From: Chrysomallon squamiferum
Lineage: Eukaryota; Animalia; Mollusca
Direction of reading: 5' to 3'
NCBI GenBank assembly: GCA_012295275.1
Contig: CM022674.1
Coordinates: forward strand, 6,758,001 to 6,822,000
Length of the DNA: 64,000 nucleotides
How positions within the stretch are numbered: position 1 is the first letter of the stretch; each line of letters opens with the position of its first letter. The translations under genes were made by a program, and so were the position numbers. Of the stretch, positions 49,942 through 63,448 are shown piece after piece. Under the pieces are notes generated by a model. That model saw only the letters and a program-made list of their open reading frames with translations. It did no database searches and was not told the DNA's origin.

Positions 49942-52900
49942 CTAGAATCTCTCCCGGAAGTTCCGGCTGTCATGCGTGTGAGAGGAAGTAGCTCGATTTG
50001 TCTCCCTTGGATTTAATTCCCCTGCACTGTTCTTATTCGCTGATCGACTGATGTTCACCACATCGTCGACGACGTCGGAGTCAAGACTACTCTTGACTAA
50101 ATCATCGACATTAGCAGTGTCGTCGTTTTTGCCGAGGTCGTTGCCGTCGTTGGTTTGGATGTTTTCAACAGCGGGAGCATTTGAACTTTTGACTTTTGGC
50201 TCCTTGGGCTGGGAGGAAGTGCCAGGGTGGTGGGTGGAAGGTGTTTTTTTGCACCCCTCTGTATCCACCTCCACCTTGCACGATGATGCAAGATTTGGCT
50301 CGCTCTCCTTTTTGTTCATTTCCGACCGTCCATTCAGCCAGTACGTCTGCATAGCCTCTCCGTCCTGTAAAATACAGTTTGTTACAGATCATACTGAACG
50401 TGTGTTTTTATTAAACTGAATATACTTTATACCCGTACTCGGTCATTAACATAACCACGAGGACTGATGATAAATTGACTGAAGCCATGGGGGGGAGGGG
50501 GTGTCTTTGGTTAAGGATGAGGATGGACTGCTTGATTTTAAACAGATAAGAATACAAAAGTATCAGTTTCTTCTTGTTGTTTTTTTTCTTTCACATTTCC
50601 CCCTACTGTTTTGCTCGAATCTCTGAGAGCTCCCTGAGTCACATGTTCTTGATTAATGTACATGTTTATAATGGATTAATTAACGTCCGTAGAAGTTCGT
50701 AGAAATTTATATGCATTAATTAATGTCCGTAAAAGTTCGTAGAAATTATTAATTAATGTTCGTAGAAGTTTAATATGTTATAAATATACACTTGTATTAG
50801 CAAATTATTTAATAATAATAATAATACTAGCTGATCAAGTACAAGTATTATGATTATTATTAGTAGTAATAATGATAGTAATACTTGAAGTCATAGTAGT
50901 AATAGTGCCAGTGTTAGCAGTAGTAATAATGGTGATAACTGTAATAGAAGTAGTAGTAGAAGTAGTTGTGCTACGAATAATTATAGTATAAGTATTAGTA
51001 TAGTAATAGTAGTAGCAGTAGAAAGAACTAGGGTAGTACAAGTATTAGTGTAGTAGTAGTAGAAATAGAAAGAGTAGTAGAATAGTACAAGTATTAGTGT
51101 TTTGTAGTAGTAATAAAACGTATTCTTACCACAGTGACAGTTGAGTCTCTTTCGGACATGAGAAAGATTTTGTGATATTTCAGAGACTTGTACGCTTTAG
51201 TACTCAACTGTATCTTCCCTCCTGAATCAAGAACAATAATAACATTTTAAAATATTTGTTTGTTCATTTACATTATTCTGCTATCAGCGTTTTAAACTAC
51301 GCCATCCTTACATTAAGTATATTAAATACGATATAACAGACCATTACTCTGTGTGACGTCATGTTTAGTTGCGTGACGTAACACAACTATCCACTAAACA
51401 GTATTTTAATATATGTTATTATGTTAGTTATATTATATATCATTTACATTATGCAATGTAAAAGATAAATAAATATAAAAACAAATGAATTTAAAAAGCC
51501 CAGTAAAATTAAACAAATAAACGAATAAGTAAAAAAAAAATTAATTAATAACTTGAAATAAAAATGAAATAAAGTAAAATAATAAATAAATAAGTAAGTA
51601 AATAAATAGACTAATTACTTGTTTTGCTCTTCATAGTTTATTATACAATAAAAATATACTGTTTTTCTTTCTTCTTTTTCTAAAGATCTGTTCATTTTCT
51701 TTAATTAAATGTGAAAACCAGCACAGAACTCAAAACAAATAAAATTATTCATTTATTTATTTATTTATTTATTTTAAATAAAACATTTCAGAAGGTGGTA
51801 GCGAGCATAAAAGCGACTGCCAAAAGATTTATGAAAGTTCTATAATTATTACGTAACGCCATTATGACGTCACGTCACTAACCTATTCCACTGGTTTTCA
51901 TTACAGAGGCGATGATGACCGATCTTCCAAAAATACAGTATCGTGGCATCCGAATCCCAATCACACCAGCCATGCTTGACCCTGAATAAAACAACAGAAT
52001 CGTAATATATGTACATGAACAGTGTGTGTCTGTGTGTCTGTGTGTGTGTGAGTTTCATTAACATATGTTTAGTTACCTGTACTTATGCCAATTTTCATAT
52101 CCACGTGCCTATCCGTAATAGTAAACAAACTTCGTTTCCTACCCAGCTCAATGAAATCTAAGGCTAAGTGAGCGATTTCAGCTGAATGACAGTGTTCCGT
52201 CCTCCTAGGAAGACCTGGAATAATAATAATAATAATAATAATAATAATAATAATCTTTGGAGCAGGAACGACATGAATGAATGAATGAATGAGCATTGTC
52301 GACATGAATGAATGAATCAATGAATTGTCAATGAATTATTATTATTATTATTGTTGTTGTTGTTGTTGTTGTTTGTGTTGTCGTTGTTGTTGTTGTTGTT
52401 GTTATTGTTATAGTTGTTGTTGTTATAAAGCACATAAATGTTATTCTCCATTAATATCAACAACTACTACTACACCTGACGCCAACATGTAGGAGTCGTT
52501 GATGGTCTCCACTTTGTACACGTCGTAGAGTGATACTTTATTGTCCAGCGTAACGTACAGGTTGTTCAACAAATCTACGATTTCCAGCGGTGTGTAGAGC
52601 GATGTCACCCGATTAAAGCCGACGATTTCCGAAAACATGATCGTCGTGTATTTGAAATACTCGGCATCAGTACTTTCGTTCTGTTTCAGTTTTTTCGCCA
52701 GTGCTAGGGGCACAGTCTGATGAAGCAGGGTGTCTGACTTTTTTAATTCTCTCTGAAGTTCTTTTGTTTTTGTGACCACTGCCTGTGCGTACTTCTGTAT
52801 TTCGCTGGTTTGAGCTTTTACGAAGTAGATGACGAGAGGACACATGAGGAAGACAACGAAAAGAAAAACGCCGTTAATCGTAAAGTTTCTGAAATTAATT

Positions 52901-62300: not shown

Positions 62301-63448
62301 TCAGAAAGCTTTTAACTCAAGGTTTACTTCTTTCTGCGGTTTTCTTAATGTGTCCTCTCGTCATATACTTCGTACAACATTTCTGCAGCGAAATACAGAA
62401 GTACGCACAGGCAGTGGTCACCAAAACAAAAGAACTTCACAGAGAATTAAGAAGGTCAGACACCCTGCTTCATCAGACTGTGCCCCTAGTACTGGCGAAA
62501 AAACTGAAACAGAAGGAAACCATTGATGCCGAGTATTTCAAATGCGCGACGATCATGTTTTCGGAAATCGTCGGCTTTAATCGGGTGACATCGCTCTACA
62601 CACCGCTGGAAATCGTAGACTTGTTGAACAACCTGTACGTTACGCTGGACAATAAAGTATCACTCTACGACGTGTACAAAGTGGAGACCATCAACGACTC
62701 CTACATGTTGGCGTCAGGTGTAGTAGTAGTTGTTGATATTAATGTATAAGGATGATTCAGATTATTTAATAATAATAATAATAATAATAAAGAAAGAAAT
62801 TAAATTTAAAAATTTGAAAAACAATTTAAGTAAGATTAAACATTCCTCTCTCTCTCTCTCTCTCTCTCTCTCTCTCTCTCTCTCTCTCTCTCTCTCTCTC
62901 TCTCTCTCTCTCTCTCTCTCTCTCTCTCTCAGTTCAGTTTTATTTGTTTATTTATTTTAGATATACCTCACCGAAACGAAAGAAAGCATTCGGCAGAGAT
63001 AGGCAACTTAGCGCTAGATTTCCTGGATTTAGCAAAAAATGGATGTTTATTTACCATAAACAACTCCAACGTGAAAATTAAGATAGGCATTAGTACTGGT
63101 AAGGTTGTTGTTGTTGTTGTTGTTTTTGTTTTTGCTTTCTGCTTTTTTGAAAAATACTCATTTTCCTTTATCATCATCATCATCATCATCATTATTATTA
63201 TTATCATCATTATTATTATTATTATTATTATTATTATGCAATAACTGATGATAGAAATTTAATAAATGGATACTAGTGATAACACTAAACAAACGTCTGA
63301 CAGTCAGAGAAGCATGGTAGAAAACTGATGACTGTATTTATTTTTCAAGGCACGTGTTTGGCGGGTATTGTAGGAATACACATGCCTAGGTACTATGTTA
63401 CAGGTGAATCCGTGAATGCGGCGTATGAAATGAAAACAAAAAGCACAG
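59391..63448 (+). CDS. NIT-domain transmembrane guanylate cyclase-like protein, paralogue B (3' end lies beyond the window)
   Basis: Exons: 59391-59505, 60157-60311, 60747-61528, 62305-62717, 62961-63098, 63350-63448. Exons 2-6 have the same lengths (155, 782, 413, 138, 99 nt) and phases as paralogue A, with the same TM-NIT-TM-cyclase motifs. The last two exons are expected downstream of 64000. Confidence 0.9.

Follow-up and report, generated by a model that had tools for sequence, protein, structure and literature searches.

The chemistry of class III cyclases is established, and half-site cyclases, in which a chain brings only part of the active site, are textbook knowledge. Metazoan NIT-domain guanylyl cyclases (NIT-GCs) are described, in the relevant passages of PMC7400543 and bioRxiv 10.1101/2023.08.02.551600, as proteins with a NIT domain between two membrane helices, two conserved arginines in that domain and a C-terminal cyclase; they are reported to be numerous in molluscs, and the same passages make no mention of incomplete, alpha-like or beta-like members. 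Within the portions of the literature found, one animal NIT-GC has been assayed, Platynereis NIT-GC1, which made cyclic GMP (cGMP) alone in COS-7 cells after exposure to a nitric oxide (NO) donor (bioRxiv 10.1101/2023.08.02.551600, passages on this protein). Active sites shared between two chains are described elsewhere: in human soluble guanylyl cyclase (sGC), according to the pertinent sections of PMC3591389, the alpha side supplies two Asp and one Arg and the beta side Glu, Cys, Asn, Arg and Lys, and incomplete chains give inactive homodimers, while C. elegans ODR-1/DAF-11 is an obligate heterodimeric receptor cyclase with half a site in each chain (PMC5225109, in part). Here we analyzed a stretch of 64,000 nucleotides from the snail Chrysomallon squamiferum (contig CM022674.1, positions 6,758,001 to 6,822,000; hereafter the window), in which positions 49942..63448 hold two divergently oriented NIT-GC genes of gastropod type, A and B. 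Their products share the architecture and the two NIT arginines of the metazoan family and, unlike Platynereis NIT-GC1, which is active alone, lack residues for cGMP synthesis; unlike sGC, whose subunits are heme proteins, both are receptors of the membrane that carry a NIT sensor.

Gene A was modeled from the window on the minus strand from 57993 to 49942 (eight exons, 737 codons plus stop), and gene B on the plus strand from 59391 to 63448 (six exons, 567 codons without a stop), where it is cut, its last exons lying past the window end. All seven introns of A and all introns of B are GT-AG, exons 2–6 have equal lengths in the two genes (155, 782, 413, 138 and 99 nucleotides), and the 14 exons contain no stop or frameshift. 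Exon 1 of A (57882..57993) starts at the first ATG and encodes a cytosolic N terminus like those of the gastropod NIT-GCs P0001 (Haliotis rufescens) and P0012 (Gigantopelta aegis), a further upstream exon being possible; its counterpart in B was placed at 59391..59505. Exon 2 encodes the first transmembrane helix (57124..57278 in A, from tblastn and hydropathy; 60157..60311 in B, from hydropathy), exon 3 the NIT domain (53299..54080 in A; 60747..61528 in B), and exon 4 the second transmembrane helix, the signaling helix and the N-terminal half of the cyclase (52476..52888 in A; 62305..62717 in B). The hydropathy plot of each protein has two hydrophobic peaks, one on either side of NIT, and Pfam Guanylate_cyc (PF00211) matches exons 4 and 6 of both genes, so that a C-terminal cyclase domain follows NIT with no kinase-like domain. 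In A, the predicted exon 7 (51130..51221) adds a C-terminal part of the cyclase, and exon 8 (49942..50364) encodes the cyclase end, a low-complexity tail and the stop, the tail amounting to 130 residues. The related run X1, with contigs that span introns and resemble the window at about 97%, has a 1-nucleotide insertion and an altered stop at 49943-49970, and the end of the tail is thus variable between lineages. The start codons face away from each other across 1,397 bp (57994..59390) with GT and CT microsatellites, a candidate shared promoter through which A and B may be co-regulated.

Exon 3 matches Pfam NIT (PF08376) above the curated cut-off, with E values of 2.7e-20 for A and 1e-18 for B, and the predicted structure of exon 3 of A reached a predicted local distance difference test score of 87.5. 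The sole structural match of the A model was NasR (4AKK; template modeling score 0.78–0.80; two matches at E ≤ 0.001, at least 500 being counted), whose asymmetric nitrate site is described, in the section of PMC8199190 concerned, with a Q-x-x-R and G-x-x-R pattern. Both motifs are kept in both genes, with Arg111 and Arg231 in A (residues 108-111 and 228-231) and Arg112 and Arg232 in B. The earlier note on this DNA had proposed a membrane helix, NIT, membrane helix and cyclase in each paralog, with intact frames and splice sites, and had named a NIT profile search as a check; the domain matches, hydropathy and exon models described above agree with it on each of these points. The converse arrangement also occurs in the family: P0135-P0137 (Drosophila species), P0129 and P0016 have a full or half cyclase and lack the second NIT arginine motif, a mirror image of A and B.

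Haliotis P0001, a complete chain whose alignment to GC-A is unambiguous, served as the guide for placing the active-site residues, which were also compared with sGC alpha1, at the eight positions given in the consulted part of PMC3591389. In exon 4, the first metal-binding Asp is replaced by Glu in both genes (Glu437 in A, encoded at 52629-52627; Glu438 in B), in the context E-I-V-G-F-N rather than D-x-x-G-F-T, and the second metal Asp is retained (Asp481 and Asp482), preceded by Asn rather than Gly. The base-specifying Glu is retained in A and B, exon 4 carrying Glu477 and Glu478, respectively. Exon 5 (52077..52214 in A; 62961..63098 in B) brings Lys528 in A and Lys529 in B in place of the gamma-phosphate Arg (Arg574 of sGC alpha), a substitution beyond those listed in the earlier note. 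In exon 6 (51883..51981 in A; 63350..63448 in B), A keeps the Cys (Cys549) and has Ile556 for the catalytic Asn and Val560 for the catalytic Arg; B has Tyr550 at the Cys position, retains Asn557, and has Glu561 for the Arg. The KGKG lid of A lacks both lysines, and the lid region of B lies past the window end. In run X1, B has Cys instead of Tyr (63395 A>G), and no difference is seen at the Arg>Glu change of B or at the Asp>Glu change of either gene; the Cys>Tyr change is thus recent or polymorphic, not fixed.

Overall, both chains have Glu/Asp/Lys on the alpha side, the beta side being Glu/Cys/Ile/Val in A and Glu/Tyr/Asn/Glu in B, so that neither has the complete one-chain set (both metal Asps with Glu, Cys, Asn and Arg). 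Neither matches an sGC subunit: alpha1 keeps Asp486, Asp530 and Arg574 (PMC3591389, same sections), where A and B have Glu, Asp and Lys, with no beta-side Arg either, and against the seven-residue metal-side signature (Asp, GFT and Gly-Asp in sGC alpha1) they deviate at four positions. As the catalytic Arg is missing from both chains, AA, BB and AB dimers are all predicted to be inactive; ODR-1 and DAF-11 complement each other (PMC5225109, in part), whereas A and B cannot. These alignments to GC-A and sGC alpha1 uphold the earlier residue assignments, namely Glu at the first metal position, the kept second Asp, the absence of KGKG in A, and the loss of Asn and Arg in A and of Arg in B, as well as the predicted lack of a full site in any pairing; the loss of Cys in B was likewise read correctly from the window, though it is not fixed. 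The label “alpha-type” given to both chains does not survive, given the four metal-side departures and a position outside the alpha-only clade in every tree, as described below. We also considered the ETIND motif as damage peculiar to A and B and rejected it, since its Gly>Asn change is found in the majority of molluscan clade members, among them chains with a complete catalytic site.

The closest relatives of A and B are gastropod NIT-GCs, with Haliotis at the top at 67% identity. Two censuses, both mollusc-leaning and built on public gene models, show how often such proteins lack part of the site. A named search gave 137 matches, 133 with NIT, of which 30 were too partial to score; the 103 scorable proteins comprised 60 complete chains, 27 alpha-only, 12 beta-only and 4 that were neither (43/103 incomplete). 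Among the best 150 representatives at 50% identity, 93 had NIT, 23 of these were partial, and 31/70 were incomplete. Going by these gene models, a degenerate NIT-GC is no exception among molluscs but a frequent occurrence, and incomplete members of the family are ordinary, yet structured by clade.

This structure is seen in a FastTree of 165 rows. An alpha-only clade of 23 rows (support 99), with nemertean, brachiopod, chiton, gastropod and bivalve members, carries the full seven-residue metal-side signature in 21/23 and Asn together with Arg in 0/23. A second, beta-leaning clade of 55 rows including A and B (support 99), here called the partner clade, has the reverse pattern: among its 53 rows other than A and B, which are left out of all counts for this clade, the full metal-side signature occurs in one and Asn together with Arg in 43. 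A search started from the alpha clade bore this out, with 53 alpha-only, 6 partial, 2 neither and 2 complete among 63 rows (the best 58 of 120 listed plus 5 that were picked). Genes of the two kinds also appear to be neighbors, as read from locus numbers: in Haliotis rufescens, the partner-clade gene LOC124112689 (P0001) and the alpha-clade gene LOC124112690 (P0273) have consecutive numbers on contigs of equal length, and in Tubulanus the alpha-only LOC141900864 is close in number to the beta-only LOC141900874 and LOC141900875 (P0085 with P0111/P0165). By analogy with sGC or ODR-1/DAF-11, the latter serving as a model for such a pair, we infer a lophotrochozoan NIT-GC that would work as an alpha/beta heterodimer.

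Within this tree, A and B fall in a 16-row gastropod clade of animal NIT-GCs (support 100), and they lie outside the alpha-only clade in every tree, that of the unconverted C-terminal half of the cyclase included. They group with Gigantopelta aegis P0106 (XP_041362094.1; support 93) in three region trees, one of them from this unconverted half. P0106 and Haliotis P0001 are the nearest relatives, with NIT domains 66–70% identical; P0106 shares the Glu and Lys of the metal side with A and B, and both relatives differ from the pair in keeping Cys, Asn, Arg and the KGKG lid. In every region, those free of conversion included, A and B place with the beta-leaning partner clade, which shows their descent from it. 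The two genes would be long-standing, intact duplicates of a receptor cyclase with a NIT domain, and the simplest history would start from an ancestor of the beta type whose metal side was already relaxed, followed by loss of the beta side. The alpha clade is represented in Gigantopelta as well, by P0296, and the three NIT-GCs of this snail in both clades (P0012, P0106 and P0296) are all fast-evolving. P0012 is a second chain that fits neither half; it keeps both NIT arginines and is not sister to A and B, and it represents an independent or parallel case within the same group of snails.

The two copies have exchanged sequence. By blastn, 60765..61453 (NIT domain) is 91% identical to the reverse complement of 53374-54062 (689 nucleotides within exon 3; synonymous divergence, dS, 0.30), and 62328..62744 (helix, N-terminal half of the cyclase and 27 nucleotides of intron) is 93% identical to the reverse complement of 52449-52865 (417 nucleotides; dS 0.05), compared with 58–61% in exons 1, 2, 5 and 6. 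In the second tract, A and B of the window are the same at three silent sites, whereas X1 is represented there by one contig, of twice the depth, that has other letters at all three; the two copies have therefore changed jointly since the lineages parted. As conversion has homogenized the tracts of exons 3 and 4, the shared Glu counts as one observation, not two, and a whole-gene ratio of replacement to synonymous divergence (dN/dS) would mislead. An assembly collapse was considered for the tracts and rejected, as they are 91–93% rather than 100% identical and part of the second tract is covered in X1 by distinct contigs, A-like and B-like. The possibility that conversion has overwritten what was once an alpha-clade gene, in A or in B, was likewise rejected, as exon 2 and the tree of the C-terminal half place both in the partner clade; in the unconverted exon 2, 29–33 of 58 residues are identical to the partner clade, vs. 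11–16 of about 58 to the alpha clade.

Outside the tracts, silent sites between A and B are saturated (proportion differing, pS, 0.69–0.84) and replacement sites much less changed (pN 0.28–0.35); in exons 5–6, 44/55 synonymous and 52/179 replacement sites differ (pS 0.80, pN 0.29; p 2e-11). Comparison of exons 5–8 of A with X1, in which differences within about 30 nucleotides of contig ends are unlisted, gave 9/164 silent and 5/559 replacement differences (p 0.0009). In a relative-rate comparison against Haliotis, the NIT domain has 12 private changes in A vs. 15 in P0106, and 12 vs. 17 for B, and the C-terminal half of the cyclase has 23 in A and 27 in B vs. 5 in P0106: the sensor evolves at a normal rate and this half about five times faster. 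By this pattern, selection keeps the sensor, the helix and the fold while the chemistry is released. Moreover, an RNA contig of run X3 (247 nucleotides, depth 2) joins exons 5 and 6 of A over the predicted 95-nucleotide intron with no difference from 51891-51980, so the degenerate motif of A is transcribed and spliced. Among the sequencing runs listed, none from RNA carried exon 3, and exons 4–6 of B had no covering RNA contig in runs X2-X4; both results weigh neither way.

Based on these results, we lean, by a modest degree, to the view that A and B are noncatalytic pseudo-cyclase receptor chains that would sense nitrate, nitrite or an NO product, dimerize with working NIT-GCs, and lower or shape cGMP output. 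According to this model, the lophotrochozoan NIT-GC would be a heterodimer, in which an alpha-only chain brings the metal ligands and the partner Glu, Cys, Asn and Arg; the ancestor of A and B would have been a partner chain with its metal side already relaxed to Glu and Lys, and once the Arg was lost neither role could be filled. With its two conserved arginines, the outward-facing NIT domain would still hold a ligand between them, be it nitrate, nitrite or an NO product, and the helix and cyclase fold could still dimerize, competing for alpha or complete chains and cutting or reshaping the cGMP response. Conversion between the inverted copies would keep the sensor and dimer helix alike while the membrane helices and the C-terminal half of the cyclase diverge. 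Leishmania RAC-B and Manduca MsGC-beta3 offer a likeness, a cyclase damped by a dimer partner that does not complement it; both belong to other families with other sensors, and MsGC-beta3 is active as a homodimer. RAC-B is reportedly an inactive inhibitor of RAC-A, although the passages of PMC7719234 and PMC3200087 that name it make no such statement. MsGC-beta3 forms inactive heterodimers with NO-sensitive subunits, according to a title cited in PMC1435932.

Several observations weigh against this model. The partner clade keeps Asp1 in 39 and Asp3 in 48 of 53 rows, and the 39 rows with Asp1 may be active alone; complete NIT-GCs are present in other clades; the heterodimer is therefore itself a deduction from the clade pattern. 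One short FastTree of the C-terminal half, built without the alpha clade, does not place A and B with P0106, and the 64 kb of the window hold neither an alpha-clade gene nor an intact partner gene. The RNA support for A is a single contig of depth 2, and for the C-terminal half of its cyclase alone recent constraint is not significant in the comparison with X1 (4/86 silent vs. 4/280 replacement sites, p 0.09). Finally, both replacements on the metal side (Asp>Glu, Arg>Lys) are of a conservative kind and the second Asp is kept, so that some alpha function is possible.

This last point leads to an alternative that we consider rather unlikely, and that was the main reading of the earlier note, in which A and B are functional alpha-type subunits whose Glu437, Asp481 and Lys528 would hold the metals and phosphate, one active site being formed together with an intact beta-type NIT-GC encoded elsewhere. 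Each substitution or retention on the metal side is indeed chemically conservative, the N-terminal half of the cyclase is less eroded than the C-terminal half (35/60 vs. 37/79 identical to Haliotis) and stays similar between A and B. Moreover, a distinct snail clade of five rows (support 96–98) is fixed for Glu at the first metal position, and several echinoderm rows have Glu at the second. Against this stand the origin of A and B in the partner rather than the alpha clade, and the changes from GFT to GFN and from Gly-Asp to Asn-Asp. In addition, N-terminal halves of the Glu type in Babylonia retain 38 and 42 of 60 residues, vs. 47–53 of 60 in complete gastropod orthologs, as if Glu marked a relaxed side, and a search of mostly open-access literature on Asp>Glu at the first metal position found nothing.

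The rate contrast between a normal sensor and an accelerated C-terminal half would suit cGMP-independent sensors or sinks of nitrate, nitrite or NO, in which the cyclase fold is a scaffold for another protein and does not pair with active cyclases; the 130-residue tail of A, and the fact that A and B differ most in the membrane helices and C-terminal half, where different partners could bind, would fit as well. Yet the signaling helix and N-terminal half remain near those of active cyclases, favoring dimerization with relatives, and Pfam finds no new domain, which makes this reading improbable. Still less credible, and already largely refuted, is the idea that A and B are decaying duplicates partly held together by gene conversion: the fast C-terminal half, the recent Cys>Tyr change in B and the displaced stop that X1 has in the A tail point that way, but synonymous saturation between A and B without a stop or frameshift in 14 exons, the depletion of replacement changes relative to X1, the correct splicing of A in RNA and the retention of both NIT arginines do not. 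The earlier note had named dN/dS near 1 with no expression as the signature of decay, and that signature did not appear, dN being far below dS and A being spliced.

Compared with the pseudo-cyclase model for A and B, we put forward more tentatively a broader proposal, less likely than not to hold, of an undescribed obligate alpha/beta receptor cyclase for nitrate or NO in molluscs, brachiopods and nemerteans, encoded by neighboring genes in abalone, with a beta-derived, converting pair of head-to-head genes whose dead but ligand-sensing products would act as its brakes in this snail. The literature searched, mostly open-access papers and with the source-data alignments of the Platynereis preprint outside its scope, gave nothing on incomplete or heterodimeric NIT-GCs or on a reciprocal alpha/beta split. 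Given the reciprocal loss of half-sites, many molluscan NIT-GCs, along with those of related animals, are predicted to be silent singly and to need a partner from a named clade, and A and B would be a third class that fits neither role while its sensor is under selection, offering a test of pseudo-cyclase tuning of nitrate/NO signaling. The surprise is limited, the pair being one lineage's variant and incomplete NIT-GCs being common; the main value lies in the clade-wide alpha/beta split.

The DNA of the window is AT-rich, of animal type and with many microsatellites. Intron 2 of A (54094-57128) consists almost entirely of two minisatellites, a 30-bp unit repeated 45 times and a 26/52/78-bp unit spanning 1.7 kb, and the matching intron of B measures 435 bp. 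The nearest gene found downstream of A is a multi-exon flavin-containing monooxygenase gene on the minus strand (41876-46614; Pfam FMO-like, four open reading frames). Farther away, at 13535-27322 on the plus strand, lies a gene with doublecortin, HELP and EML beta-propeller exons (DCX-EMAP-like), of which a 344-codon open reading frame at 10540-11571 may be an upstream exon.

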